Origin: an uncultured bacterium
Lineage (GTDB): Bacteria > Verrucomicrobiota > Kiritimatiellia > CAIKKV01
NCBI GenBank assembly: GCA_938038445.1
Contig: CALHRZ010000010.1
Location: 16,757-80,756 of the forward strand
Direction of reading: 5' to 3'
Length of the DNA stretch: 64,000 nt
Position numbers and translations under genes: made by a program
Notes under the pieces: model-generated
Told to the model about the DNA's origin: nothing
Seen by the model: the letters and a program-made list of their open reading frames with translations, nothing else
The model's database searches: none
In this document: one piece after another, positions 3,828 through 49,619 of the stretch
Layout: the number at the start of each line of letters is the position of its first letter
Numbering within the stretch: the first letter of the stretch is position 1

Positions 3828-5194
3828 GGGGAGTCTATTCTCCAGTCATGCAAGGTGGGGATACGGCGGGCGGCGTATTGGAGCAGAAAGAAAAGGGCAA
3901 GTGAGGCGATCAGGAGAAGGGTCACGAAAGGGGTTGTTTCCACCAGTCCTTGCCGTTCGAAACGATAGAAGATTGCGATGGGAGCCACGGGAGGATCGGC
4001 GGTCATGAAGTAGACGGCGCCGAATTCCCCTGCGGCCCGCGCCCAGGCGAGAACGGCGGCAAGGAATAGACCGCGGCGGGCAAGGGGAAGGACGAGAAAC
4101 CGGAACGCCCCCCAGGCATTGGCCCCGAGGTGGCGGGCGGCCAGTTCGAGGTCGGGTGGGACGGCATCGAAAGCCGCAATCGCGGGTTTCACCAGAAAGG
4201 GAAACGCGGTGAACATCTGGGCGATTACGATCCCGGCGACGCTTCCGTCCAGGGCGACACCCCATCGTGATTCGAGCCAAGCGCCGAGGGGTTGGGTCCG
4301 GCTGAAAACGGAGAGGAGGGCGATTCCGGCGGCGGACTGGGGAATGATGATGGGGACATCCATGAGGGCGAGGACGAGGGTTTTGCCGCGAAACGTCAGG
4401 CGGCTGAGGCCGTATGCGAGTGGAATGCCTAGGAGGGCAAGGCCGAGTGTGGAGAGGCAGGCGGTTCCGGCGGTCAGGAGAATCGCGTGGCGGGTTTCTG
4501 CCCGTTCCAATTCGACGGCGAGAGTTGCGGTGGACTGGCTGAGGAGGAGGACCAGGACGGGGAGAAGGACCAGGGCCAACGCGGCAAGTCCGATTCCCAG
4601 GCCGAGCAGAGCGGCGGGATTAGAGGGATGGGCGTGGGCGGTCAGTATGGAGCGGAGAAGAAGGGCCAATAGGATTGCGGATTCCCAGGCGTAGGGCTGG
4701 AAAAGGGTAAAGGCGAGGACGAGGATCCAGAACCATGCGAGGAGGCGGAAATCGCGTCCGGTAGCGCACAACCCCATTACGGCAAGGAGAAAAAGCGGTT
4801 CCGCATGAGGCAGACGGACAATGAAGAGATAAAAGAGCGCCAGGTAGCTCAGGGCGAAAACTATTCCGTAGCGTAGGGGGCGCTGTTCGAAAATGTTCCA
4901 AGCCACATAGACCGTGAGGAGGCTGACGAGAAGCAAGGCGCCACTGGTCAGCGAATCGGGCGCCAACCGATGACCGACAAGAGCATGGGCGGCATTCAGG
5001 AACAGTACGGCGCTTCCCATGAGTTGTGGGATCTGACGGCGTGCCATCCCAACGGACAAAAGGCCGTTGAGCGCAAGGAGTCCGAGGCTGAACGGTTCGA
5101 GGGGATCGAGCCGGCCGGAGGTTCCCAGAGCCAAATGGCCCAGAAGGTGAGCGCCGAGCAATAGGAAAGGTAGCCATGAAAGAAAAGAATTCAT
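3824..5194 (-). CDS. ABC transporter permease (ModB/CysTW/TupB-type) fused to an extra N-terminal ~200-aa polytopic membrane domain
   Basis: The C-terminal half has the classic EAA-loop region (AARHLGANAWGAFRFLVLPLARRGLFLAAVLAWARAAGEFGA). The N-terminal ~200 aa are additional hydrophobic helices. A strong RBS (GGAGGGGA) precedes the ATG at 5194. Confidence 0.65.
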   Translation of the reverse strand: MNSFLSWLPFLLLGAHLLGHLALGTSGRLDPLEPFSLGLLALNGLLSVGMARRQIPQLMGSAVLFLNAAHALVGHRLAPDSLTSGALLLVSLLTVYVAWNIFEQRPLRYGIVFALSYLALFYLFIVRLPHAEPLFLLAVMGLCATGRDFRLLAWFWILVLAFTLFQPYAWESAILLALLLRSILTAHAHPSNPAALLGLGIGLAALALVLLPVLVLLLSQSTATLAVELERAETRHAILLTAGTACLSTLGLALLGIPLAYGLSRLTFRGKTLVLALMDVPIIIPQSAAGIALLSVFSRTQPLGAWLESRWGVALDGSVAGIVIAQMFTAFPFLVKPAIAAFDAVPPDLELAARHLGANAWGAFRFLVLPLARRGLFLAAVLAWARAAGEFGAVYFMTADPPVAPIAIFYRFERQGLVETTPFVTLLLIASLALFFLLQYAARRIPTLHDWRIDSP

Positions 5195-24343: not shown

Positions 24344-25171
24344 ATGCGGTATTCGATGATGAGTTACACGATCGCTCGCCATGGGCCGAAAGTTTTCGAT
24401 CTCGACCGGATGCTGCGGCTGGCGGTCGAATTGAAGATGGCGGGTGTGGATTTTGTGACATTGCACGGTTTTTCGGCTGCCGAATTGAAGAAGCGATGCG
24501 AGGGATATGGACTTGCAGTTGTGTGCTATACCATTCCGGCGGGGGGGCTGACCAGCGATAGGCGGGAGGAAGTGGAGCGGGCAAAGGAAACGTTGATGCG
24601 CGGGGTGGAGGATGCGGCGGCACTTGGCGCTCCCGTCATAATGGTCGTTACGCCGGGGCGGGATGACGTGCCGCGCGACGAAGCGCGTCGGCGCTACATT
24701 GAGGGGATTGCGCGATGCATCGAAGTGGCGAAGCCCATGAACATTCGGGTAACGGTAGAGAATTTTCCGGGTAAGAGCAGTCCGTTTGTCACGGCGGAGG
24801 ATTTCTTGGCGGCTGCCGTGCAATTACCGGATTTGGGCTTGACGTTTGACAGTGGGAATACGGCGGGCGGCGAGGATCCTGCGGATTCGTTTCGGCGGGT
24901 TGCGGGTCGCGTCGCACATGCCCATTTCAAGGATTGGGTGGTTCTGACCGCGCGGCAAGCGGGCGGGCGGGAAATGTTGAATGGTCTTCGGTATGAACCG
25001 GCGCTGATCGGCGAAGGGATTCTCAATCACAAGGCCGTGCTTGGGGCGATGGGGCAATCGGGATATTGCGGGTGCATTAATATTGAATATGAGGGGCCGA
25101 AGGATCCTTATGAAGCAACTCGGGCGGCGGTAAATTATTTGCGGGCGCTCGAGGTGGAACTCGGCGTTTGA
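24344..25171 (+). CDS. Sugar phosphate isomerase/epimerase (xylose-isomerase-like TIM barrel)
   Basis: Typical motifs are present (GVDFVTLHG ... MVVTPG ... VTVENFPG ... HAHFKD ... INIEYEG). Confidence 0.55.
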   Translation: MRYSMMSYTIARHGPKVFDLDRMLRLAVELKMAGVDFVTLHGFSAAELKKRCEGYGLAVVCYTIPAGGLTSDRREEVERAKETLMRGVEDAAALGAPVIMVVTPGRDDVPRDEARRRYIEGIARCIEVAKPMNIRVTVENFPGKSSPFVTAEDFLAAAVQLPDLGLTFDSGNTAGGEDPADSFRRVAGRVAHAHFKDWVVLTARQAGGREMLNGLRYEPALIGEGILNHKAVLGAMGQSGYCGCINIEYEGPKDPYEATRAAVNYLRALEVELGV

Positions 25172-25176
25172 TCTTC

Positions 25177-25253
25177 TGGCGTACCTGGCAGGAGTCGAAC
25201 CTGCAACCCTCAGATCCGAAGTCTGATGCTCTGTCCAATTGAGCTACAGGTAC
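25177..25253 (-). tRNA. tRNA-Arg (anticodon TCG)
   Basis: The 77-nt cloverleaf (minus strand) is GTACCTG TA GCTC AATTGGACA GAGC A TCAGA CTTCGGA TCTGA GGGTT GCAGG TTCGACT CCTGC CAGGTAC G CCA. A20 in the D-loop is an Arg identity element. The CCA end is encoded. Confidence 0.75.
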
Positions 25254-25276
25254 AGGGAAGGGTGAGGTCAAGGTGC

Positions 25277-25353
25277 TGGCGTACCTGGCAGGAGTCGAAC
25301 CTGCAACCCTCAGATCCGTAGTCTGATGCTCTGTCCAATTGAGCTACAGGTAC
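25277..25353 (-). tRNA. tRNA-Arg (anticodon ACG)
   Basis: It is identical to the neighbouring tRNA except for position 34 (anticodon loop CTACGGA). It lies 23 nt upstream (in transcription order) of the TCG copy. Confidence 0.75.
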
Positions 25354-25356
25354 GCG

Positions 25357-25384
25357 TTGCATATCCATTGCCCTGTACTATAAA
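25357..25384 (+). promoter_or_regulatory. Candidate uvrB promoter (TTGCAT-N16-TATAAA), overlapping the divergent tRNA promoter
   Basis: TTGCAT lies at 25357-25362 and TATAAA at 25379-25384. The -10 boxes of the two divergent promoters overlap. Confidence 0.3.
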
Positions 25385-25405
25385 ATAAGCGTTTAGGAAA
25401 AGCAA
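25377..25405 (-). promoter_or_regulatory. Candidate sigma70-type promoter for the tRNA-Arg pair (TTGCTT-N17-TATAGT on minus strand)
   Basis: Minus-strand TTGCTT lies at 25400-25405 and TATAGT at 25377-25382 with a 17-nt spacer. This places the TSS ~17 nt upstream of the mature tRNA 5' end. Confidence 0.4.
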
Positions 25406-25418
25406 GCGATCCTTGTCT

Positions 25419-27476
25419 ATGTCTCTGTTGTTCCGCCTTGAGTCCCCTTTTGAACCCACCGGCGATCAACCGGCCGCGATTGCGGCGATTGAGGAAGCGT
25501 TCCGGGCGGGGCGGCGCTATCAGGTATTGGAAGGGGTGACCGGTTCCGGTAAAACGTTTACAATGGCGAATGTGATTGCCCGACTGGGCCGTCCGGCTCT
25601 TGTGATCTCCCACAACAAGACGTTGGCGGCGCAGTTGTATGCGGAGTTGAAGAGCTTTTTTCCCGGAAACGCGGTGGAGTATTTCATCAGTTACTACGAT
25701 TATTACCAGCCGGAAGCCTACATTCCTCAGACGGACACTTATATCGAGAAAGATGCCTCGATCAATCGGCAGATCGAGCGGTTTCGTCTATCCGCCACAA
25801 ACGCGCTTCTCGGGCGGCGGGATGTGATTGTGGTGGCCTCTGTGTCGTGCATCTACGGGTTGGGGTCGCCGGAGGACTATCGGGAGATGGTGGTTTCGGT
25901 CCGGCGGGACGCGCCGATGGACCGGGACGAACTGTTGGCGAAATTCGTGGAGATTCAATACGATCGAAATGACGGGGAATTGGAACCGGGCGTCTTTCGG
26001 GTACGGGGGGACGTTGTCGAAGTGGTACCTGCGTGGGAGGAAACGGGAATTCGGCTGTTGTTTTTTGGGGACCGGGTAGAGCGGATCGAGCGATTCGATC
26101 CCTTGACGGGCCGGACCCAGGAGGAGTGTGAGGCCGTCGTATTATCCCCGGCCAATCATTTTGTGACCCCGCGGGACAAGCTGGAATGGGCCATTGCGGC
26201 CATTTTGGAAGAGCTGGAGGAGCGGGTGGCCGAGTTGGAGAAAGCCCGCAAGCTGGTGGAAGCGCAGCGGTTGCGGCAGCGCACGTTGTATGATGTGGAG
26301 ATGCTCCGGACGGCGGGTTATTGTCCGGGGATTGAGAATTATTCGCGGCACTTGACCGGTCGGAGGGCGGGAGCCCCCCCCGCAACGCTGATGGATTATT
26401 TTCCGGCCGATTTTCTCACGATCGTGGATGAGTCTCACGTGACGGTGCCTCAGCTACGGGCGATGTACAACGGCGACCAAGCGCGCAAGACGGTGCTGGT
26501 GGAGCATGGGTTTCGGCTTCCCTCGGCGAAGGACAACCGGCCGCTTAATTTTGATGAATTTCTGGAACGGGCCGGTCCGATTTTATTTGTGTCGGCGACG
26601 CCGGGACCCTTCGAGAGGAGTTTGTCGGATCCCGTTCGGCAGCTCATTCGACCGACGGGGCTCTTGGATCCTCCGGTGGATGTGCGGCCTTTGCGGGGGC
26701 AGGTGGATGATCTAATGGCGGAGGTGCGGGCCCATGCTGCGCGTGGGGAGCGTGTGTTGGCCACGACGTTGACGAAAAAGACGGCGGAGGATCTTGCGCG
26801 TTATCTGCGGGAAGCCGGGTTGCGCGTGCAGTATCTTCATTCCGACATCACGGCGCTGGAACGGGTGGACATTTTGCGACGGTTGCGCCGAAACGAATTT
26901 GACTGCTTGGTGGGTGTCAATTTGCTGCGGGAGGGGCTTGATTTGCCCGAAGTGTCGCTTGTAGCGATTCTGGATGCGGATAAGGAGGGGTTTCTACGGT
27001 CGGACACCTCGCTGATTCAGACGGCGGGTCGTGCGGCCCGGCATGTGAACGGCAAGGTGATTCTGTATGCGGATGAGGTGACGGATTCGATGCGCCGGTT
27101 GATCGAGGTGACGGAGGAACGCCGGGCTGTTCAGATGGAGTTCAATCGCCGCCATGGGATTACGCCCAAGAGCATTCAACGGGAGCGGGACTGGGAGTGG
27201 GCGGCGGGAGCGACGGCTCGGGCGATTGAGGAATCAGTAGTTCGGGAAGCGGGAACGGCGTATGAAACGCGCGATTTGATAGAGACGCTCAAGAAAGAGA
27301 TGTGGGAGGCTGCAGAGGCGCTGGAGTTTGAGCGGGCGGGGCGGTTGAGAGATGAACTGATGGAACTTATGAAAGCGGCGGGGATGACGCCGCCGCGCGA
27401 GTGGCGAAAACCGGGTGGACGCGGGGCTGCCCGGCGTCCACTGGGGAGGCGTCATGCCCGCCCGTTTCGGAGGTGA
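25419..27476 (+). CDS. uvrB: Excinuclease ABC subunit B (UvrB)
   Basis: The conserved UvrB N-terminus ([20 protein letters not shown]), the helicase motif (GVTGSGKTF) and the C-terminal UvrB/UvrC-interaction region are present. The start is ATG 25419, or the TTG at 25413 as in the ORF track. Confidence 0.9.
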
Positions 27477-27480
27477 TAAG

Positions 27481-28002
27481 ATGCCGATCTACGAATTCTA
27501 CTGTCCGAGTTGTCATCGTTTATTTTCCTTTTTATCCCGTCGGGTGGGCGTATCTCGGACGCCTGCTTGCCCGAAGTGCAAAGGGCATCAGATGCGCCGC
27601 GAGGTTTCGCCCTTTGCGGCTCCGAGAAAAAGCGGTGAAACGCGGGGGGCAGAGGAGGGCGGCGAGCCAGGCGGTGAGGAGGAGGTGCCGGTAGAGGAGG
27701 AGCGGGTCGAGCGGGCGTTGGATACGCTGGCGGCCGAGGCGGCCTCCATGGGGGAGAACGAGGATCCCCGGCAGGCGGCGCGGTTGATGCGCCGTTTTTC
27801 CGAGATGACGGGCATGCCGCTGGGGGAAGGGATGGAGGAAGCGATGCGCAGGCTCGAGGCGGGGGAGGATCCCGAGGCGGTTGAAGAGGAATTGGGCGAT
27901 CAAATCGAGCGGGAAGATCCCTTTGAAACACCTCGGCGGCAAGAAATTCGCCGTCGGAGAACGCCTCCTTCCCGCGATCCGACGCTGTATGATTTGGGCT
28001 GA
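27481..28002 (+). CDS. FmdB-family zinc-ribbon protein (putative regulatory protein)
   Basis: MPIYEFYCPSCHRLF ... ACPKCKG, a CxxC-N-CxxC zinc ribbon, is followed by an acidic low-complexity tail. Confidence 0.6.
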   Translation: MPIYEFYCPSCHRLFSFLSRRVGVSRTPACPKCKGHQMRREVSPFAAPRKSGETRGAEEGGEPGGEEEVPVEEERVERALDTLAAEAASMGENEDPRQAARLMRRFSEMTGMPLGEGMEEAMRRLEAGEDPEAVEEELGDQIEREDPFETPRRQEIRRRRTPPSRDPTLYDLG

Positions 28003-38873: not shown

Positions 38874-41800
38874 ATGACATTTCGATGCTGTTCGGGTAGG
38901 TTGTTCCAGCTTTTGGGCGTTCTTTGCAGTTTTTTTCTTTCTGAAGTGGGATGGGGGCAGACGTGGACGTTCAATGTGCCCGAACGGGTAGTGGAAACCG
39001 GCACGAATTGGTTGACGGGTGCCGGTGTGGTCAGTAAAACGGGGATTGGAACCCTCTGGCTGATTCCGACAGGGGCCACCAACGTCTATACGGGACCGAC
39101 CTATGTTTTGGATGGGGTTCTGAGGGCCGACGAGGGGCGAGGCTTGCCGTTTGCGTCCACCTTATATCTCAACGGTCAGAATGTTGCAACTCGGTCAACA
39201 GGGGTTTTGGAAACCCGTGGAACGTTTTCCCGGGATGTGGGAACCGCGGCAGGGCAAGTTTATTGGAACGGGACTTATGGCGGATTTGCCGCACGTGGGG
39301 GTGATCTTATTGTGACTCTGAACGGTGGGGCTCCGTTGCTTTGGGGCGCAGCCAACGGCTTTAATGCGAAAAGTCTTTCCTTGAGCAGCCTGACCGCGGA
39401 CGGAGCGGTCGAGATTCGGAATGACATCGGATTGGGGGCAAACCGGGCTGTTTTCATCGAGCTGAATACGAATAATGCGAACAATTTAGCGGTTCTTTCG
39501 GGTGTGATCAGCAATGGTGCTGCAAGCGCGTTCGGACTGACCGTAAATGGTCGTGGCACCTTGTGGTTGCGTAACACCAATACATTTACGGGTGCGCTCA
39601 CTTTTGGCGGGGGGACAGTGCGCGCAGTGGATGGCGTGGGGCTTCCAACGACGGCACTGGTGACATTCAACAATACGGCTACGCATGGGATACTGGAATC
39701 CTCCGGCTCATTTACTCGAACGATTGGGAGTGGGGCGGGGCAAATTTCATGGCAATCGTCGAGTGTCGGAGGAGGATTTGCAGCGTGGGGAGGGCCGTTG
39801 AATGTGAGTCTTAACGGGGGTGGGGTCATCAATTGGGCGAGCGGCACGGATGGTTTTAATGGGCGGGTTCTGGTGTTGAACAGTTTTACCGCGAACGACC
39901 GAGTCATCCTTGAAAATTCGATCGAACTTGGGGCGGCTCGCACCATTTATGTTTATGACAATCCTTTTTCTGAGAATGATGCCGCCGAGATCCGTGGTGA
40001 ACTTCGGGGAAATAATACAGGCTATAACCTTACTAAAAGCGGGCCAGGGATCTTGGAGTTGAGTGGGTTTAATTCTTATCGTGGCAATACATTTGTTGGG
40101 GAGGGAACACTGCGGGTTAATGGGACAATTGCGAGCAACAACTATATTCAGGTGAATGTTCCGGCCATGCTGAGCGGGACGGGTCGAGTGATCAGTGTCG
40201 CTGCGAATGGTCTTTTGAATTATGGGACCGTATCGCCCCAGGATGGGACAGCGGCGGGCGTTTTACGGTACACGGGGCATGGGACGCTCTATACCAACTC
40301 TCGTTTGGAGGTGGTGCTGGGACCTGGGACCCAGGTGGGGCGATTGGAGATCAGTGGGAACGTGACGATTCAAACCAACTTTATCGTGCGGTTTCGGGAT
40401 TTTGGGGGTTCATGCAAAGCAGAGGATGAGTTAACGGTTTTGACGTATGGGACCAATTGCATGTCATTTCCGACGAACAGCTGGTCTTTCGACGCCTCGC
40501 TGGTGCAACATTCAGGGCGGTGGAATTGGACGAATGCGGTGTTGGTGCACGATCCGGCGGGCAAGCGGGTTTATGTGACCGGTTTGCGGGTGGATCCGCA
40601 GACTCCGAGCACATGGGTGACTTGGAATGGAGGGGCGGGAAATTGGACGGACTGGAACTGGGATGGCCCTGAGCCGGTTCCGACCATCGAGACGGAGGCT
40701 TTGGTGCTTTCCTCCGATTCCGATATTCAGGTCACGGGGGAGCAAGAAGCCCATACGCTGACGCTTTCCAATGGGGTGGTGCAAATTGAATCGGGTGGTG
40801 AGTTGGAAAGCTATTATGTGGAGATAGGGGGTGGGGAACTGAATGTGGAGGGAGTGCTCAAAGGGTTTGAGCGGGTTCGGGTGGCTCCGGCGGGTTCCTT
40901 GCGAATTTCGGGTACGCTGCAAGGGGCCGATTTGATCATCGAAGGGACGAATGTATTGGAATCGGGCGCAGACCTACGGGTGAGGCAATGGGTGTTTGGG
41001 GCGGATCAGACGCTGGGAAGCAATGTGTCCATCGCCGCCGATCGTGTAAGCGTTCCGCCTGCTCTGTTTTTGGAATCGGGCAGTGTGCTCAGTGCGGGGA
41101 CGTGGAGTGTAAAGGGGAATGTGGATGTGGCAGCGAGCGCGCAGGTGGCGGGGCAAGTTCGGCTGGCTACGGATGGGGATATGACCATTCACGGGGAGGC
41201 GGCATCGGGTGCTGTTATAGTGATGGATGGGGGCACGTTGCGCGCTTCGGAAGCGACCAGGGTGGGCGGATTGGATTTTACCTTGGGTGGTGTTTTGATC
41301 CGGGATGGGGCAACGGATCCGTTGCAAGTGGCAGGTCCGTTGATTGTACAGGGGGTTAATTTGGATTTGGATGGGTTGAAGCTGGACACATCAGAGGCTG
41401 CCATTGTGGCGACGAATGGGTATTGGCTGAGTACGACCGGGGATTTAAATGCGGCTTCGCTCCGAATGGTCGGTCCTATGCTCCGTGTGGGAGGAATGGT
41501 TTCGATCAGCAACGTGCTGTCCCTGGAAGATGTGACGATCACCAATCCGATCACAGGAGACACGATGGTTCTGGTGGGTGAAGGGCGCACACGGGATCAA
41601 CTTGTTTGGTTGGCCGCCTCCAACTCATTTCGGGGTAAAGTTCAGATTGAGCGGGGTACTTTGAGAGCCATTCCGGGAATCGGGTTGCCTGATGATCCAG
41701 GTGCTGGGGCATTTGATTTTTCCGCCGATACTGCCGGATGGCATGCTCTCTTGGAAGGCAACGGGGTTTTTGCCCGTTCCATTGGTGAGGGGAGCGGCGA

Positions 41801-44800
41801 TGTGTTTTGGAGTGGACATGGGGGGTTTGCGGCCTGGGGGGGAGATTTGGATGTGACGCTAAGGGGTGGAGATTTGATCACATGGGGAGCCACGAATGGA
41901 TTTCGCGGTTTCAACCTTTATTTGAGCAGCACGTCCGCTACGCATGTCGTAACGCTTCACAATCCCCTATTGGTCAATGGCACACATATTTTGCGGGTTT
42001 TTGACAATCCGTTCACCAACTCCGATTATGCGCGAATTACCGGTACGATTTCCATGGATACAGCGGGGCGGATCTTACAAAAAGCCGAACCGGGCATGGT
42101 CTGGCTGACGGGAACGAACACGTTTGGGGGCCGATTGCAAATTGATGATGGGGTTGTGCGAGCGATCGACGGGGCAGGACTTCCCGCTTCCGCCACTCTC
42201 TATCTGAACGGATCACTGCCAGGGACTCGCGCGTGTGGCGTGTTGGAGAGCAGCGGGGTGTTTGCCCGTAATATTGGGACAGGCGCAGGTCAAGTCTATT
42301 GGAATAATGCCGGAGGTTTTTCGGCTTTTGGTGGGCCGTTGGAGGTCCTTCTGAACGGTGGCGCAACCATCAGCTGGGGCGCAGCCAATGGATTTAATTC
42401 CAAGATCCTTGTCTCGGGCGGTCCGACCGCCGATGAAGTCGTGACGCTAGTCAATCCGGTCGATTTGGGGGCAAATCGTTCCATCTATGTCTGGGACAAT
42501 ACGAACTCACCGTCTGATGCGTTCAAGATGGCGGGAACCCTTGCCAACGGGGGTGCAGGCCATTTTGGGATTTGGAAATATGGGGATGGTGTCCTTTGGG
42601 TGACGGGAACCAACACCTTTACCGGAGGGATCACGAACTTCAACGGCGTTGTCCGTTTTGGGGACGGCATTGGGATTTCCGCCTCCGCATCGATGCGGCT
42701 AAGCGGCGGCAATATCACGCCCTGTGTGTTTGAGACGAGTGGAACACTGACGCGGAACCTGGGCACCGAAGCCGGGCAGATCCACTGGGGAGGGAGCGGC
42801 GGTTTTGCGGCATGGGGCGGGGATCTCGACTTGGTGTTCCATGGCGGTTCGAATATTGTCTGGTCCGCGCTTTCGGGCGGATTCAACGGCCAAGTTTTGC
42901 ATTTGGGATCGCGAACGGCGAACGGACGAGTGGATCTTAAAAACGACATCGCGCTCAATGGGCACCGAACCATTTATGTGTGGGACAATCCATTCTCCAC
43001 CAGCGATTATGCCCGCATTTCCGGAACGATTTCGAACGGTCCTACAGCCGGTTCGCAATTTCTTCGGTACGGTGATGGGTTGCTGGAACTGACGGCGACC
43101 AATAGTTACACGGGGCAGACTTCTCTCTATGACGGTGATACCCGCGTGATGGGAGTTATTTCGGGACCGGTGGTAGTGGCCGTAAACCACACGAATGGGC
43201 CTCGTACGATCCTTTCGGGTATAGGACGCGTGGGTAACCTCACCGTGCAGGCCAATGGCATTGTGGCGCCGGGGGCGGGGGGTGTCGGCACCCTGACGGT
43301 GAACGGAAATGCGACAATTCAACGCGGTGCGGCCTTGGAGTGGGAGATTGGGTTGGACCAACAGTCTGATCGAATCCATATCATATCGAACGTCACCTTT
43401 AATGCGGAATGGGTTCTTCGGGTTCGGGATGGTGGAGGCTGTCCGACGAAGGAGGATCGGTATCCGGTGGTGACGTTTGGCGGTTTTCTGGCCAGCAACA
43501 CCACAACGGTATTGGATTTTTCGCTCTTGGATGAGGAGGTATGGGATGTTTCGGAGGCGCGCGTTTATTACGATCCGACCAACAAGCAGGTCGGGATCAC
43601 GGGATTGGGATACACGGGACCGCGGGTGCTGGTATCGGATGCAACCGTTGCCGAGACGGATTCGGGCGAAGTGGAGTTGGTCTTTGATGTGACGCTTTTT
43701 GATGGGTTTATGGGAGATGTGGACCTTTACTTTGCGACAGCCGATGGGACAGCGGAGGCCGGCAGTGATTACACGGCGACGTCCGGGGTGGTGACCCTGA
43801 CGATGGATTGGCCGAGCACAACGATCGTTGTAAAAGTTCAGGGGGACACGGTTCCGGAATGGCCGAGCGAATATTTCCTGTTGAGTCTCGCCGTGACCGG
43901 GGGAAACGCGCGGTTGGTGCGTTCGACGGCGGTTGGGAAAATTGCGGATGATGATGGAAGCGCGCGCTACAAGATGCCGATCGTGTTGAGCGGTTACACC
44001 GGAACAGAGACCTTGATCAACTTTCCGGCCCTTGTTACGTTCCGTGAGGGGGATGGGGGTTTCAGTTACGGGCAAATGGGGCACACAAACGGGTGGGACT
44101 TGCGGTTTCTCAATGCGGAAGAGACCGAGGAGTTGGCATACGAAATCGAGCAGTGGAATCGGGCCGGAACCTCGTATGTTTGGGTTCGGATTCCCCGATT
44201 GAGCGGCACGAACACCCTGATCTGGGCGGTATGGGGTGATGCGACGGTGACCGAACCGCCGGTGTATAGCACGAATGGAACAGTATGGTCCGAAGGGTTT
44301 GTGACGGTCCATCATTTCACACCCCCCGTTGGAGGGCTTTATCGGGATTCGGGGCCAAGAAATTTCCATGGCGTCAATGAAGGAGGCCGGATGGCATCCG
44401 GTGCAATCGGGGTCGGTTTGGATCTCAATGGGCCGACCAACAACGTCAACATGACCGGAGTGGCGTCCTCTGAACAAAGCTTCACGTTCGAGATGTGGGT
44501 TCGCACTCCCAGTTTAGTTTTGAACCGTTATTTATTTGATGCATTGAACGGCCGCCATCTGATTGCCATTAACTATCCCACCGTGGGAACGATTGCATAT
44601 TATGATGGCACATGGCGGTATTTCCCAGGGGCTCAGGGGTTGAACAATGGCGAGTGGAACCACGTGGTCGTGGTGGTTGATCGTGACGCCGGCCGTTCTG
44701 CTGTATATCTCAACGGCGAATTTGTGGGCACGAATACCTATAATCCCCGCGTGCTGGGTGGACAGGCGAGGATTGGGTCCCAATACAATGCGCCGGCAAC

Positions 44801-47800
44801 CCAGCATTATGATGGGCAGATGGATGAATTTCGCATTTCGGATCGTGCGCGTTCCGCCGATTGGATACGGGCGAACAGTCAGACCCAGAGCCGACCGGAT
44901 GAATTTGCCCGTAAAGGGAATGTCTTCACGGCTCGGGGGGGTGCGCTTGCGGAGGGGGTGTTAGCCGTGGGCAACCGTGCGGCCACCGGCGTACGCGACG
45001 GTAAGGCGACACTGAATGGAATCTTGGTTGGAACAGGCGGGGAAGCGACGGCGGGTTTGATGGTTTGCTGGGGGACGGCCGATGGGGGTACGGGGGCGAC
45101 GGGGGATTGGGAATATGCCGCTTCGCTGGGGACGGGGATTGAGCCTGCGTCATGGGTATCCTTTGAAGTTGACGGGTTGACGCCGGGTCAAAGTTATGCG
45201 TATCGGTTTTTTGCCACCAACGCAGCGGGTGAGGCGTGGGCGTCTCCGGCCGAATGGTTTGTGGTGCCTCGGGGGTGGTATGTGGCCACGACGGGTGATG
45301 GGAGCGACGGACAGAGTTGGGCCACGGCCTATACGAATATTCAGCAGGCGCTGGATGCGGCGCAACCGGGAGATGAAATCTTTCTCAAAGGGGAGCGGTT
45401 CAATATATGCAGTGATCCGACAGAAAACAACCAGCTCCTTGTCACCACGCCCAATCTCCGGATTCGCGGTGGGTACGAGGGGGTGGGGACGCCCGGGGCG
45501 AATGATCCTTCCGTATGGGTCACCATTATCACGCGCAGTGCGGGAACCAACCGGTTGATGCTCATTGATGGTGCCGACAATGTGGAGCTGTATGGACTGA
45601 TGTTTACCAATGGGTTACCCCGTGCACGTGCCAACCCTGTTCATCCTGATTCGAGTGGGGCGGGTCTCTTTATCCGAAATGCGAACGGAATCCGGATCGA
45701 ACGATGCGTCTTTCAACAGAATTGGGGCTACGGTCCGTTTGTGAACGGCGGCTATGTCTATGGCGGTGGAATTTGCGCCGTGACCTCCCGGTTGGAAATC
45801 GTTGCGAGTCGGTTTGTTTCGAACCGCGTCACCAGTTTGAGCTCGGCAAATATCCAGAATGGTTCTGGCGGCGGCATTGCCGTTGTGGATGGCGAATTGA
45901 CCATCGAGGATTCTGAAATTCTTGACAACTGGGTGGCTGGGGATTACCTGCATGGTTATGTGGATGGGGGAGGGCTTTCGATTCGGGGACTTTTTACAGC
46001 TCGGCGTGTTGTCGTGGCGCGAAACGATGTCGGAGAACCGTCGAATGATGCACGCCAATTCGGGGATGGAATTTACCTCTGGGGTGCAGGGAAGATTGAG
46101 AATGGGCTTTTCTTCAGGAATGGGCAATTCGCTCCGGGCACATCGGGAACATCGAACTTTGCGGTATATGTGGCCGGCGGGTATCTGACGATGGATCGGT
46201 GCACGGTAACCGATCACAAGCAGGCGGGTCTCTATCGAATCGGGGGGTCGGTTGTTATTTCCAATAGCATATTCTGGAACAACAACTTCTTGGATATATA
46301 CGAAAATGTGGCCGGAAACGTCATTCCCTTCTACACGCTGACCCAGCAGGGCTTTTACGATGGAGTTAATGGATGTTTTTCAGCGAATCCGTTGTTTGCC
46401 GATACCAACACCTTCCATCTGAAATCCGCCTATGGGACCTATACGGGGGGTTGGTTCAGCGGAGGCACGTGGGAGAATGCCGATGCGAACAGCCCGGCGA
46501 TTGATGCGGGCGATCCTTTATTCCGGGCCGACTTGGAGCCGTTCCCGAACGGGGGGCGGTTAAACTTGGGCGCATATGGCGGAACGATGGTAGCCTCCAA
46601 ATCGCCTCCGATTGCCGTCAGCAATGAACCGGCTTCGGGGGTGTCGCCGACGATGGCTCGGTTGAATGGGCGAATTGTGTCGGTGGGAGGCTACGGGACG
46701 GAAGCATGGTTTCTGTGGGATACAGAGGATCGAGGTGGCGATGTGGGGGCGTGGTCGAATCGTACCTTTGTTTCCACCTATGATGCGGCGGGTCCAGTGA
46801 CGTTGTTCTTGACGGGGCTAACACCGGAGACGGTTTATTATTATCGCTTGATGGCCACGAATTCGGCCGGTGGGTATGCTCTTGCCGAACCGTCCGAAAG
46901 CTTTGAAACCGTTCTTTCGAAACCTGAAGTGGCAAATCGAGGGGTGGAAAACGAAGCGGGCCCCACCGTGGTTTTGAAAGGCGAGGTGGTATTGACAGGT
47001 GGGGAAGACCCTGGGGTTTACGTCGTATGGGGTGAGGTTCCTGGTGGAAAGGCAACTGGGAGCTGGGAAAACGTGGTTTATGCCGGTTTTCAGGGAGGAA
47101 CGTTCAGCGTCGAGGTCGCGACGGCACCGGGACGCAGCTATTATTACACCTGTTATGCGACGAACAGTGGGGGAGAGGATTGGGCGTGGCCTCCCATTCA
47201 TTTTGGAGTCTCCAACTTATTCTATGTGTCAGCCGATGCGGTGGGAGAAGGCACAGGTCAGGGGTGGGTCAATGCTTTCAGCAACCTGCAAGATGCGCTC
47301 AATGCGGTGCTCTCGGACAAACCCACGGAAATCTATATCAAAGGAGGCGGCGGCAAGGAGCTGCAAGCGGCTGCGGAAGTCGGGTGGAATCGGTCCAACG
47401 TGCGGATTCTGGGCGGTTATGAAGGGGTAGGCTGGCCTGGGAATCGTGATCCGGAGGTTTGGCCGACCGTTTTGACTCGTCGCCCTGCCAACTTCATTCG
47501 GATCCTTTCGATACAGGGTGTTACGAACGGCTTACTGGATGGCGTGACCATACGCCATGGCAATCTGGCCGATTTCGGGGGTGGGATTCGGATTGTGAAT
47601 TCGACGAATCTAACGATTGCAAACTGCCGGATCGAGCGGAACAAGGGAGAGAATGCGACGGGAGGAACGACGGGGGGTGGCGGGGTGTATGCGGTCGATT
47701 CGTTCGGGGTGATTACGAACTGTTTGTTTGAGCGTAACGCGGTGACCAACACGGCTGGAGGCGGGTTTGCGTTGGGCGGCGGATTGATGATTTCGAATGG

Positions 47801-49619
47801 GCAGTGGACGATCCGCGACAGTCAGTTTATCTACAATACGGTGAATGCCAGCGGAAGCGGCTCGCGTGGGCGTGGTGCGGGCGTATATATTCATGGCGGC
47901 CAGCATGCGATCCGAAACTGCCTCTTTACCCAGAACTATCCTGCCGGAGCGGTGGATCAAGCGACGATGGCGCAAGGCGGGGCAGCCTACTTGACCAATA
48001 CCGTTGTTGCGTTCGATTACGTGACGGTGGCCGGCAATGTGCATGAGGGAATTCATGGCGCACAATTTGCCGAAATCCGGCATTCGATCCTGTGGCACAA
48101 TGGGAAAGACCTTGTCGGAACGCCGGGCGTATTGGCATACAACTCCATCAGTGACGGGGATGGGGTGGGGACCAATGGAAACGTGGTGACGGATCCTCGG
48201 TTTGAATATGGGTTCTATCTTGGTGATGGGAGTGGGTGTCGGGATGCGGCTTCGGAGACCGCTGCAGCGGCTGGGTTGGGCGGGATGTCGACCCGAGCGG
48301 ATGGGGCTTTGGATGAGGGTATGGCGGATCTTGGGTATCATGCGGCGCGTGGGATTGGGCCTTGGCACACTCTCTATGTGGCGACGGACGGCAATGACGC
48401 AAATGCCGGAACGAATTCTGCGGCCCCCTTGCGATCGCTGACAAGGGCTCTTGAAAAGGCGCTGATGGGGACGCGCGTCCTTGTTGCCGAGGGGCTCTAT
48501 GACAAAACGGTGGAAACATTCCCACTGATTGTGGACAAGGCGGGAATTCAACTTCTCGGTACGAATTTCGAAACCACAATTGTTTCCGCTTTGAATGCCA
48601 CGAGCCGGGTATTTCACGTCTTTGAGGCTCCGTGGGTTGTGTTGAGGGGAATGACCATAAGGGATGGCGTTCAGACGACTTATCGGTACTATCAGCAGGG
48701 CGGTGGGTTGTGGATTCGTCATTCGACTGATCTGCTGTTGGATCGCTGCGGGGTCGTCAACAATCTCAATCAGGGCGCAGTCAACGAGAATCGTTATGGG
48801 GGCGGTATCTATGCAGAAAATGCGGCGTTTGCTCGGGCGATCAACACTCGTTTTGTCAGCAACACCGTGTTTGCGAGTGCCGGACTATGGTCTGGTCTTG
48901 GGCATGGTGGGGGATTATACTTGTTGCGGGGAAGCTGGACCTTCGAGCGGTGTGTCTTTTCGGGCAATCTGGCCCGTGGGTACAATAATGAAGGTGCCTT
49001 GGGAGGCGCGGTGGCCATCTTGGGGGGAACCCATGAGTTTCGCAATTCCTTGATCGTCTCCAACAGTCTCGAATCCCGGGGTTATGGAGGGGATGGCGTG
49101 TATTCCCAGAACGCGACCACCCGCGTGGTAAACTGCACGGTTGCGGACAATGGGTGGCATCCGACGAAACCTGCGGGCTATTTTCGCGATGGATTGAGGC
49201 AAGTCGGAACGGGATACTTTGAAGTGCGCAACAGCATTGTGTATGGAAATCAGACGAACGATTTGGCGGGATTCACCACGAATGAGGTGGGCGAGTTGAT
49301 TAATGTTTACTACACGTGCATCGGAGACGGCCAAAACAACGGCGTGCAAGGATGCTTCCAGGCTGATCCGTTGTTTGCGGACCGTATTCATTATCATGAG
49401 CTATCCCGGAAAGGCTATTACAGCGGGGGCTTCTGGACAGGTGGGGAATGGCTCCTGGGCGGGGAAACAAGCTCTTGCATTGATGCGGGGGATCCCAATG
49501 ACGCGTATGAACATGAACCGGAACCCAACGGGAAGCGGATCAATCTCGGCGCATATGGCAACACGGAGACCGCCAGCAAGACGGCACGGCCGGGAGGAAC
49601 ACTCATCATTGTTCGGTAA
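38874..49619 (+). CDS. Giant (3581 aa) secreted multidomain surface/adhesin-like protein: PATR (autotransporter-associated beta-strand) repeats, Calx-beta, DUF2341-LamG, FN3 modules and three PbH1 beta-helix modules with choice-of-anchor-Q-like caps
   Basis: It has a signal peptide and a strong RBS (GGAGGG). Repeated GTLWL...NTFTG...GGTVRA units occupy the N-terminal ~1400 aa. The Calx-beta signature is VSDATVAETDSGEVELVFDVTL...DYTATSG. The LamG region is GEWNHVVVVVDRDAGRSAVYLNGEF. The repeated caps are DAGDP...NGGRLNLGAYGGT and CIDAGDPNDAYEHEPEPNGKRINLGAYGNT. Confidence 0.7.
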   Translation: MTFRCCSGRLFQLLGVLCSFFLSEVGWGQTWTFNVPERVVETGTNWLTGAGVVSKTGIGTLWLIPTGATNVYTGPTYVLDGVLRADEGRGLPFASTLYLNGQNVATRSTGVLETRGTFSRDVGTAAGQVYWNGTYGGFAARGGDLIVTLNGGAPLLWGAANGFNAKSLSLSSLTADGAVEIRNDIGLGANRAVFIELNTNNANNLAVLSGVISNGAASAFGLTVNGRGTLWLRNTNTFTGALTFGGGTVRAVDGVGLPTTALVTFNNTATHGILESSGSFTRTIGSGAGQISWQSSSVGGGFAAWGGPLNVSLNGGGVINWASGTDGFNGRVLVLNSFTANDRVILENSIELGAARTIYVYDNPFSENDAAEIRGELRGNNTGYNLTKSGPGILELSGFNSYRGNTFVGEGTLRVNGTIASNNYIQVNVPAMLSGTGRVISVAANGLLNYGTVSPQDGTAAGVLRYTGHGTLYTNSRLEVVLGPGTQVGRLEISGNVTIQTNFIVRFRDFGGSCKAEDELTVLTYGTNCMSFPTNSWSFDASLVQHSGRWNWTNAVLVHDPAGKRVYVTGLRVDPQTPSTWVTWNGGAGNWTDWNWDGPEPVPTIETEALVLSSDSDIQVTGEQEAHTLTLSNGVVQIESGGELESYYVEIGGGELNVEGVLKGFERVRVAPAGSLRISGTLQGADLIIEGTNVLESGADLRVRQWVFGADQTLGSNVSIAADRVSVPPALFLESGSVLSAGTWSVKGNVDVAASAQVAGQVRLATDGDMTIHGEAASGAVIVMDGGTLRASEATRVGGLDFTLGGVLIRDGATDPLQVAGPLIVQGVNLDLDGLKLDTSEAAIVATNGYWLSTTGDLNAASLRMVGPMLRVGGMVSISNVLSLEDVTITNPITGDTMVLVGEGRTRDQLVWLAASNSFRGKVQIERGTLRAIPGIGLPDDPGAGAFDFSADTAGWHALLEGNGVFARSIGEGSGDVFWSGHGGFAAWGGDLDVTLRGGDLITWGATNGFRGFNLYLSSTSATHVVTLHNPLLVNGTHILRVFDNPFTNSDYARITGTISMDTAGRILQKAEPGMVWLTGTNTFGGRLQIDDGVVRAIDGAGLPASATLYLNGSLPGTRACGVLESSGVFARNIGTGAGQVYWNNAGGFSAFGGPLEVLLNGGATISWGAANGFNSKILVSGGPTADEVVTLVNPVDLGANRSIYVWDNTNSPSDAFKMAGTLANGGAGHFGIWKYGDGVLWVTGTNTFTGGITNFNGVVRFGDGIGISASASMRLSGGNITPCVFETSGTLTRNLGTEAGQIHWGGSGGFAAWGGDLDLVFHGGSNIVWSALSGGFNGQVLHLGSRTANGRVDLKNDIALNGHRTIYVWDNPFSTSDYARISGTISNGPTAGSQFLRYGDGLLELTATNSYTGQTSLYDGDTRVMGVISGPVVVAVNHTNGPRTILSGIGRVGNLTVQANGIVAPGAGGVGTLTVNGNATIQRGAALEWEIGLDQQSDRIHIISNVTFNAEWVLRVRDGGGCPTKEDRYPVVTFGGFLASNTTTVLDFSLLDEEVWDVSEARVYYDPTNKQVGITGLGYTGPRVLVSDATVAETDSGEVELVFDVTLFDGFMGDVDLYFATADGTAEAGSDYTATSGVVTLTMDWPSTTIVVKVQGDTVPEWPSEYFLLSLAVTGGNARLVRSTAVGKIADDDGSARYKMPIVLSGYTGTETLINFPALVTFREGDGGFSYGQMGHTNGWDLRFLNAEETEELAYEIEQWNRAGTSYVWVRIPRLSGTNTLIWAVWGDATVTEPPVYSTNGTVWSEGFVTVHHFTPPVGGLYRDSGPRNFHGVNEGGRMASGAIGVGLDLNGPTNNVNMTGVASSEQSFTFEMWVRTPSLVLNRYLFDALNGRHLIAINYPTVGTIAYYDGTWRYFPGAQGLNNGEWNHVVVVVDRDAGRSAVYLNGEFVGTNTYNPRVLGGQARIGSQYNAPATQHYDGQMDEFRISDRARSADWIRANSQTQSRPDEFARKGNVFTARGGALAEGVLAVGNRAATGVRDGKATLNGILVGTGGEATAGLMVCWGTADGGTGATGDWEYAASLGTGIEPASWVSFEVDGLTPGQSYAYRFFATNAAGEAWASPAEWFVVPRGWYVATTGDGSDGQSWATAYTNIQQALDAAQPGDEIFLKGERFNICSDPTENNQLLVTTPNLRIRGGYEGVGTPGANDPSVWVTIITRSAGTNRLMLIDGADNVELYGLMFTNGLPRARANPVHPDSSGAGLFIRNANGIRIERCVFQQNWGYGPFVNGGYVYGGGICAVTSRLEIVASRFVSNRVTSLSSANIQNGSGGGIAVVDGELTIEDSEILDNWVAGDYLHGYVDGGGLSIRGLFTARRVVVARNDVGEPSNDARQFGDGIYLWGAGKIENGLFFRNGQFAPGTSGTSNFAVYVAGGYLTMDRCTVTDHKQAGLYRIGGSVVISNSIFWNNNFLDIYENVAGNVIPFYTLTQQGFYDGVNGCFSANPLFADTNTFHLKSAYGTYTGGWFSGGTWENADANSPAIDAGDPLFRADLEPFPNGGRLNLGAYGGTMVASKSPPIAVSNEPASGVSPTMARLNGRIVSVGGYGTEAWFLWDTEDRGGDVGAWSNRTFVSTYDAAGPVTLFLTGLTPETVYYYRLMATNSAGGYALAEPSESFETVLSKPEVANRGVENEAGPTVVLKGEVVLTGGEDPGVYVVWGEVPGGKATGSWENVVYAGFQGGTFSVEVATAPGRSYYYTCYATNSGGEDWAWPPIHFGVSNLFYVSADAVGEGTGQGWVNAFSNLQDALNAVLSDKPTEIYIKGGGGKELQAAAEVGWNRSNVRILGGYEGVGWPGNRDPEVWPTVLTRRPANFIRILSIQGVTNGLLDGVTIRHGNLADFGGGIRIVNSTNLTIANCRIERNKGENATGGTTGGGGVYAVDSFGVITNCLFERNAVTNTAGGGFALGGGLMISNGQWTIRDSQFIYNTVNASGSGSRGRGAGVYIHGGQHAIRNCLFTQNYPAGAVDQATMAQGGAAYLTNTVVAFDYVTVAGNVHEGIHGAQFAEIRHSILWHNGKDLVGTPGVLAYNSISDGDGVGTNGNVVTDPRFEYGFYLGDGSGCRDAASETAAAAGLGGMSTRADGALDEGMADLGYHAARGIGPWHTLYVATDGNDANAGTNSAAPLRSLTRALEKALMGTRVLVAEGLYDKTVETFPLIVDKAGIQLLGTNFETTIVSALNATSRVFHVFEAPWVVLRGMTIRDGVQTTYRYYQQGGGLWIRHSTDLLLDRCGVVNNLNQGAVNENRYGGGIYAENAAFARAINTRFVSNTVFASAGLWSGLGHGGGLYLLRGSWTFERCVFSGNLARGYNNEGALGGAVAILGGTHEFRNSLIVSNSLESRGYGGDGVYSQNATTRVVNCTVADNGWHPTKPAGYFRDGLRQVGTGYFEVRNSIVYGNQTNDLAGFTTNEVGELINVYYTCIGDGQNNGVQGCFQADPLFADRIHYHELSRKGYYSGGFWTGGEWLLGGETSSCIDAGDPNDAYEHEPEPNGKRINLGAYGNTETASKTARPGGTLIIVR

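Follow-up and report, generated by a model that had tools for sequence, protein, structure and literature searches.

The 64-kb stretch of DNA analysed here (the window) contains exactly two tRNA genes, which ARAGORN called as tRNA-Arg(TCG) at 25177–25253 and tRNA-Arg(ACG) at 25277–25353. Both lie on the minus strand, are 77 nt long with the encoded CCA and gave a full-model match (1–71) to Rfam RF00005, scoring 71.1 bits (TCG) and 68.3 bits (ACG) against a gathering score of 29. Between them lies a pyrimidine-rich spacer of 23 nt at 25254–25276 (minus strand; GCACCTTGACCTCACCCTTCCCT when read in the orientation of the tRNAs). Pairwise alignment, which took in 20 nt of flank on each side, gave an identity of 76/77, the sole difference being position 34 (A versus T), and the 20-nt flanks of the two genes were dissimilar to each other. 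A repeat finder returned one 78-nt direct repeat with a period of 100 nt, i.e. the tRNA plus one base, and therefore a spacer of 23 nt. Chance does not explain a near-perfect repeat of 78 nt whose two copies each score fully as a tRNA. The original prediction had described two 77-nt tRNA-Arg genes that differ only at the wobble base and are spaced 23 nt apart; ARAGORN, the alignment and the repeat finder reproduced this description to the exact coordinate, and ARAGORN confirmed the arginine assignment of both anticodons. The minus strand had been omitted from it, and the order along transcription is ACG, spacer, TCG.

Identity elements and expression of the tRNA pair

The identity elements of ArgRS are A20, C35, position 36 and A/G73 (PMC9976931). 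The ACG gene has the anticodon loop CUACGGA (C32 U33 A34 C35 G36 G37 A38) together with A20, G73 and the encoded CCA, and the TCG gene retains A20, C35, G36, G73 and CCA with T at position 34. In both genes the A at position 20 was placed by the D-loop AAUUGGACA and a discriminator G precedes the CCA. The determinant set (A20, C35, G/U36, A/G73) is thus complete and identical in both, and therefore both tRNAs should be charged with arginine. Judged by cloverleaf score and identity elements, the two genes are predicted to encode functional-type arginine tRNAs. The upstream gene has A34 in a loop of the tRNA-Arg(ACG) type, and the tRNA encoded at 25277–25353 is presumed to be a TadA substrate in which A34 is converted to I34. 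The downstream gene has T34 and therefore cannot be a TadA substrate.

A promoter-like site lies upstream of the ACG gene at 25377–25405 on the minus strand (TTGCTT at 25405–25400, a 17-nt gap and TATAGT at 25382–25377), read from the sequence and an alignment, and ends 23 nt before the 5′ end of that gene. In an alignment of 8 loci, four outgroups among them, the TTGC and TA...T elements were invariant and equally spaced although the surrounding sequence had diverged. An automatic promoter scan did not list the 25377–25405 site, since its −35 hexamer fits only 3/6 consensus bases. The 23-nt spacer is too short to hold a promoter of its own. With one conserved promoter-like site and no room for another in the spacer, the ACG and TCG genes are probably co-transcribed, and the two tRNAs would be processed from one transcript in equal amounts. 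Folding of the dicistronic transcript gave z = −1.36, with a minimum-energy structure that pairs the two identical copies with each other.

Genomic neighbourhood and source organism

The pair is bordered by two protein-coding genes from the open reading frame list. A sugar-phosphate isomerase/AP_endonuc_2-type gene (24344–25171, plus strand; PF01261 on its orthologues) is convergent with the tRNAs, its stop codon and the 3′ end of the TCG gene lying 5 nt apart, and is 75–76% identical to its counterparts in the contigs L121, L123, L124, L131 and L136 (tblastn). On the other side, uvrB (25419–27476, plus strand) is divergent from the pair. The isomerase-type gene and uvrB served as synteny anchors and uvrB as the phylogeny anchor. 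The UvrB protein of the window matched P0001 at 100% and P0002 at 87%, and its best named matches were Kiritimatiellia MAGs, by which the window probably derives from a Kiritimatiellia-like bacterium. The GC content of the 64-kb window is 58%, short of the very GC-rich genome that had been supposed.

Several other features of the region were recorded. An ORF of the Zn_ribbon_8 (PF09723) type at 27415–28002 (plus strand) overlaps the 3′ end of uvrB by ∼60 nt, and the uvrB–Zn-ribbon pairing is kept in the sister clade described below and in several outgroup loci (L142, L143, L144). A giant ORF of 3581 aa occupies 38874–49619 (plus strand); its sister-clade counterpart has 3577 aa and Pfam matches to PATR, Calx-beta, Laminin_G_3 and beta-helix/DUF1565, which suggests a large surface or adhesin-like protein. 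The window has a GC skew, (G−C)/(G+C), of +0.19 that is positive in every 4-kb bin regardless of gene orientation. The skew was ∼0.12 in the sister clade (L148, L152 and L155 looked at) and ∼0.01–0.02 in the syntenic outgroups L130, L142 and L143, with magnitudes up to ∼0.1 at other distant loci. Third-position skew in the window was +0.23 for plus-strand genes and −0.38 for minus-strand genes. The tRNA pair is on the C-rich strand and, if the G-rich strand is the leading one, would be transcribed against the replication fork, an unusual orientation for tRNA genes.

Origin of the tRNA-Arg(TCG) gene

A metagenome scan with a 54-nt tRNA pattern gave 20 loci and UvrB-anchored look-ups gave 16 more. 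Four of these loci are syntenic outgroups (L130, L139, L142 and L143), with UvrB proteins 68–71% identical to that of the window; each has a single tRNA-Arg(ACG) gene, which differs from the window ACG gene by 1–3 nt, in the order tRNA(−)–nadA(+)–uvrB(+). The outgroups include the MAGs GCA_964609905.1 and GCA_046484345.1. Another seven metagenome contigs, whose acceptor stems (GTACCTG or GTGCCTG) match exactly or almost so, likewise had a lone ACG gene. In total, 11 more distantly related contigs, 4 of them syntenic, have a single ACG gene, and the orthologous loci among them hold only the parental anticodon.

The window TCG gene and its ACG neighbour have in common the lineage-specific acceptor stem GTACCTG and the T-loop TTCGACT. 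Single TCG genes that matched the pattern elsewhere have the acceptor stems GCACCTG or GCGCCTG, and those with the GCACCTG stem adjoin a tRNA-Ser(GGA), including in a Lentisphaerota MAG. Since its stem and T-loop are those of the neighbour, the window TCG gene is a paralogue of the ACG gene rather than an orthologue of the other TCG genes. The single ACG gene of the outgroups together with the shared acceptor stem therefore indicates that TCG arose from ACG by duplication plus an A34-to-T change. On this comparison the upstream ACG gene is the parental copy and the downstream TCG gene the derived one, with the direction ACG to TCG by way of an A-to-T transversion at position 34. This agrees with the duplication and anticodon switch that the original prediction proposed. 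The 54-nt pattern had no match in viral contigs and so gave no sign of a phage-borne origin.

The interval between the tRNA genes and uvrB also differs among relatives. The nadA gene is directly upstream of uvrB in distant relatives (L130 773–1925, L142 2308–3333, L143 4973–5998 and L146 4804–5832) and sits between tRNA-Arg(ACG) and uvrB in L130, L139, L142 and L143. It is missing from this interval in the window and the sister clade, where the tRNAs abut uvrB.

Age and retention of the pair

A sister clade shares with the window the gene order isomerase, tRNAs, uvrB, Zn-ribbon gene and Na/Pi cotransporter. Between window and sister clade, UvrB identity is 88% at the protein level and 76% at the DNA level, and 57% of the four-fold degenerate sites of uvrB differ, i.e. 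they are about saturated. Ten sister-clade contigs carry the ACG–spacer–TCG arrangement, with a 26-nt spacer. They come from lineage A (L123, L124, L131 and L152–L155; tandem in 6 of 7, with a single ACG gene in L153) and lineage B (L136 and L148–L151; tandem in 4 of 5, with a single ACG gene in L151); lineage C, represented by L121, has a single ACG gene in its one contig. Both tRNA bodies in lineage B are identical to those of the window, and lineage A adds a single substitution, T16C, in its TCG copy. The window ACG gene is identical to the single ACG gene of L121. Across UvrB identities of 68–88%, the tRNA bodies have 0–3 differences.

The sequences around the tRNA bodies behave differently. 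The flanks of the pair are unrelated between the window and the sister clade while the bodies are still identical. Similarity between the window spacer and the 26-nt sister-clade spacer was not significant, as 829/5000 shuffles scored as well (P ∼ 0.17), and no similarity was found between the spacer and either flank of the window pair. Loss of spacer similarity is expected at 57% four-fold divergence even with common descent. Since spacer homology is not demonstrable, a single shared origin rests on parsimony and on the identical architecture, and a tandem pair ancestral to the window and the sister clade is the simplest reading of these sequences.

The presence of the pair across a saturated uvrB divergence means that the duplication is old. 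The original prediction had called it recent; instead, the pair predates a split at which 57% of four-fold uvrB sites differ and after which neither spacer nor flanks retain similarity. T34 and an intact tRNA body occur in the window and in lineages A and B. Intact bodies and T34 on both sides of such a divergence show purifying selection on both genes, T34 included. Indeed, gene conversion without selection would erase T34, so that its retention points to selection. The near-identity of the copies is thus a product of purifying selection, possibly helped by gene conversion.

Single-copy contigs and alternative explanations

Within the sister clade, a single ACG gene was seen in L121 (ERZ27245902), L151 (SRR7048214) and L153 (ERZ27247266). 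Over 3 kb, the sequence of L153 (a k141-labelled contig) matches tandem contigs without a mismatch, and L151, from a Logan assembly, shows two mismatches; in a further contig, L156, the contig end (positions 1–2) coincides exactly with the 5′ edge of the ACG gene. Rooting on the window placed L121 with lineage A, with 28 informative sites for this grouping versus 8 and 12 for the alternatives. The best reading of the three contigs is repeat collapse during assembly or a recent deletion of one unit between the 77-nt repeats. Should they be real, some cells can do without the TCG gene. We considered the single ACG gene of L121 as a sign of recent duplication and rejected it, given the grouping of L121 with a tandem lineage; this use of L121 is also undercut by the single-copy contigs inside lineages otherwise identical to tandem contigs.

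The explanation we favour, and consider probable with good confidence, is an ancient duplication of a single ACG gene with an A34-to-T34 change, followed by retention as a two-gene arginine operon. A recent duplication and switch within the window genome would account for the identical copies (76/77), and a close relative with the same flanks, L121, does have a single ACG gene; nevertheless, the probability we give it is slight, because the duplicated block is the tRNA plus 1 nt with a spacer matching neither flank, the same pair is found in a clade beyond saturated synonymous divergence, the single state of L121 within lineage A is secondary or a collapse, and tRNA bodies that barely vary between lineages give no date by their identity. 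Somewhat less improbable, though still distinctly unlikely, are two independent duplications and switches, in the window lineage and in the sister-clade ancestor, that converged on the same architecture. Such convergence would fit the lack of significant similarity between the spacers and their unequal lengths (23 versus 26 nt), and an unrelated ACG–TCG pair in another phylum (L079, below) proves that recurrence is possible. It would also have to explain the same order with ACG upstream, the same two bordering genes and the near-equal spacer length; the lost spacer similarity is expected under common descent, and one gain is more parsimonious than two.

Assemblers struggle with short near-identical tandem repeats, and the one-copy contigs in otherwise identical lineages (L151 from Logan, L153 from k141), along with the break of L156 at the tRNA boundary, show the kind of trouble that could make the second copy, or its T34, a mis-assembled or collapsed variant of a single gene. 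We find this hardly credible for the window, because the pair with T34 is present in independent related assemblies: ten further contigs, assembled from several samples by two or more assemblers, JGI assemblies included, and among them L148 with 125x coverage by its contig name. Moreover, the errors seen go toward collapse into one copy and not toward spurious duplication. The possibility of an artefact, raised when the pair was first noticed, is answered by this recurrence. A non-functional, decaying TCG copy, or one kept identical solely by conversion from the ACG gene, might be suspected from the apparent lack of TCG in three contigs and from the plausibility of gene conversion between 77-nt repeats. 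We judge it highly improbable: a neutral copy should have many changes by saturation and the TCG copy has 0–1, unselected conversion would overwrite the T34 that is kept in the window and in lineages A and B, and the gene scores as a full tRNA at 71.1 bits.

Under the favoured history of ancient duplication and retention, an ancestral single tRNA-Arg(ACG) gene would have been tandemly duplicated and the downstream copy would have undergone the A34-to-T34 transversion, giving a UCG isoacceptor whose tRNA body is otherwise unaltered. Its origin would fall after the split from relatives with ∼70% UvrB identity and before the split from the sister clade at 88%, and both genes would have been preserved by selection since then.

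Distribution of tRNA-Arg(UCG) and parallel cases

A scan of one genome per species with a 27-nt tRNA-Arg core, in which position 34 was left as N, returned at least 120 loci. The core runs from the 3′ strand of the D stem through the anticodon arm and variable loop, and its sequence, GAGCATCAGACTNCGGATCTGAGGGTT, is identical across many bacterial phyla. The wobble base among the matches listed gave TCG in 107/123 and ACG in 16/123, and those matches included Pelagibacterales, Campylobacterota, Acidobacteriota, Gemmatimonadota, Ignavibacteria/Bacteroidota, Nitrospirota, Planctomycetota and Binatia, among others. By these matches, tRNA-Arg(UCG) on essentially the scaffold of the window genes is widespread. 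The ‘non-target’ inosine-box tRNAs are absent from most species that have inosine modification (PMC6063277), and therefore UCG and ACG in one genome are the less usual state. The initial view that tRNA-Arg(UCG) is uncommon in bacteria is thus only partly right: it stands for most inosine-modifying species, as reported in PMC6063277, but TCG was found in 107 of the 123 matches listed and in many phyla.

One parallel case was found in a Thermoanaerobaculia MAG (Acidobacteriota), where L079 has its own tandem pair at 3905–4071, with ACG and TCG genes 13 nt apart. These genes have in common an unusual acceptor stem, GCAGCC, and carry several T-arm and acceptor differences. The L079 pair appears to be an older, parallel instance of such an event and, being unrelated to the window pair, indicates that ACG/TCG duplications of this type recur. 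Separately, L014 (2284–2310) and L100 (1574–1600) each have a second exact 27-nt core ∼300–400 nt from a complete tRNA-Arg(TCG). ARAGORN called no tRNA at these second cores, which may be tRNA fragments, e.g. integration-site duplicates.

Arginine codon usage and decoding

In ∼18,700 codons from the long ORFs of the window, arginine was encoded by CGT (14%), CGC (29%), CGA (16%), CGG (34%), AGA (3%) and AGG (5%). The genome had been described as CGG-rich, and CGG is indeed the commonest arginine codon; CGA and CGG together make up 50%. As a result of the skew, the preferred codon depends on the strand of the gene, with CGG at 43% of arginine codons in plus-strand genes and CGC at 43% in minus-strand genes. 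Codon usage differed little between the tandem clade and the outgroups, with a weak trend to more CGG that is confounded by strand skew. By established decoding rules (PMC3711424), an ACG tRNA, once TadA has deaminated it to ICG, serves CGU, CGC and CGA; a UCG tRNA serves CGA and CGG, and perhaps the whole CGN box where U34 lacks modification. CGA and CGG, half of the arginine codons, are thus read well by a U34 tRNA, while an I34 tRNA would decode them poorly if at all.

We propose that one promoter upstream of the ACG gene drives both genes, and that RNase P and 3′ processing would release the two tRNAs. Both would be charged by ArgRS, whose determinants A20, C35, G36 and G73 are untouched. 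TadA would turn A34 of the first tRNA into inosine, for reading CGU, CGC and, poorly, CGA, and the second tRNA, with U34, would read CGA by Watson–Crick pairing and CGG by wobble, the added decoding capacity being the likely selective benefit. The lineage probably reads CGA and CGG by a dedicated U34 tRNA besides the inosine tRNA.

No (H/C)AE...PCxxC motif of cytidine/adenosine deaminases turned up when the 64-kb window was scanned in six frames, and ARAGORN called no tRNA-Arg(CCG) within it. A different role for the UCG gene is possible, if on balance unlikely: it may substitute for a lost CCG isoacceptor or for an older UCG isoacceptor with a different body, or be a first step away from TadA and inosine of the kind proposed for Mollicutes, with copy number as a real on/off polymorphism. 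Possible drivers would then be the strong G-over-C strand skew and the CGG-rich leading-strand genes, and the single and tandem contigs could represent a polymorphism generated by recombination between the 77-nt repeats.

Comparison with known systems

The tRNA-Arg(UCG) of Mollicutes has been proposed to derive from duplication of an ACG gene followed by an A34-to-U34 change (Yokobori et al. 2013, PMC3711424). Mollicutes and the window have in common the codon box, the parent and product anticodons and the proposed mechanism, and in both U34 would ease the reading of A- and G-ending CGN codons that are hard for an A34 or I34 tRNA. For Mollicutes, phylogenetic analysis could not resolve the origin, which is linked to the disappearance of tadA and tRNA-Arg(CCG) from reduced genomes of high AT content. 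In contrast, parent and daughter in the window lie side by side with identical bodies, in a PVC-type genome of 58% GC that has kept the ACG gene.

Tandem tRNA operons are familiar from E. coli, in the argQ–argZ–argY–argV run of ACG genes and the glnU/W–glnV/X operon. Those operons resemble the window pair in being co-transcribed tandem tRNAs with short spacers, isoacceptors related by duplication, whereas their copies have either the same anticodon or several body differences and the window pair differs in the wobble base alone. In yeast, anticodon switching after loss of a tRNA gene was reportedly described by Yona and colleagues in 2013 in eLife. In the study of Ayan et al. (2020, PMC7661048), a bacterial tRNA gene was born experimentally by tandem duplication; the duplications were large (‘large-scale’ in the title) and left the anticodon unchanged. 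In these two systems, as in the window, the tRNA set adapts to decoding demand via duplication and/or a single anticodon mutation, but they are laboratory events triggered by tRNA gene deletion, whereas the duplicated block of the window is ∼100 nt, natural and ancient. Anticodon shifts and gene remolding of tRNAs have also been surveyed in eukaryotic genomes (Rogers & Griffiths-Jones 2014, PMC3923123). The likeness lies in substitution of the anticodon on a kept body, detected by synteny with relatives that have the old anticodon; unlike those cases, the window pair is a bacterial isoacceptor shift in a tandem operon that leaves the amino-acid identity unchanged.

The window pair exemplifies a known way in which tRNA sets evolve, tandem duplication followed by an isoacceptor anticodon shift, and not a new mechanism. 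The practical consequence is modest, namely the probable use of a dedicated U34 tRNA for CGA and CGG alongside the inosine tRNA, and neither the molecules nor the mechanism are of a new kind. The locus carries a caution for the dating of tRNA genes, namely that identity between paralogues need not mean a young duplication. It is also an unusually clean natural case of isoacceptor gain, in which the neighbours are one base apart and the outgroups still have the single parent, and it provides direct genomic support for a route to tRNA-Arg(UCG) that the Mollicutes study could only hypothesise.
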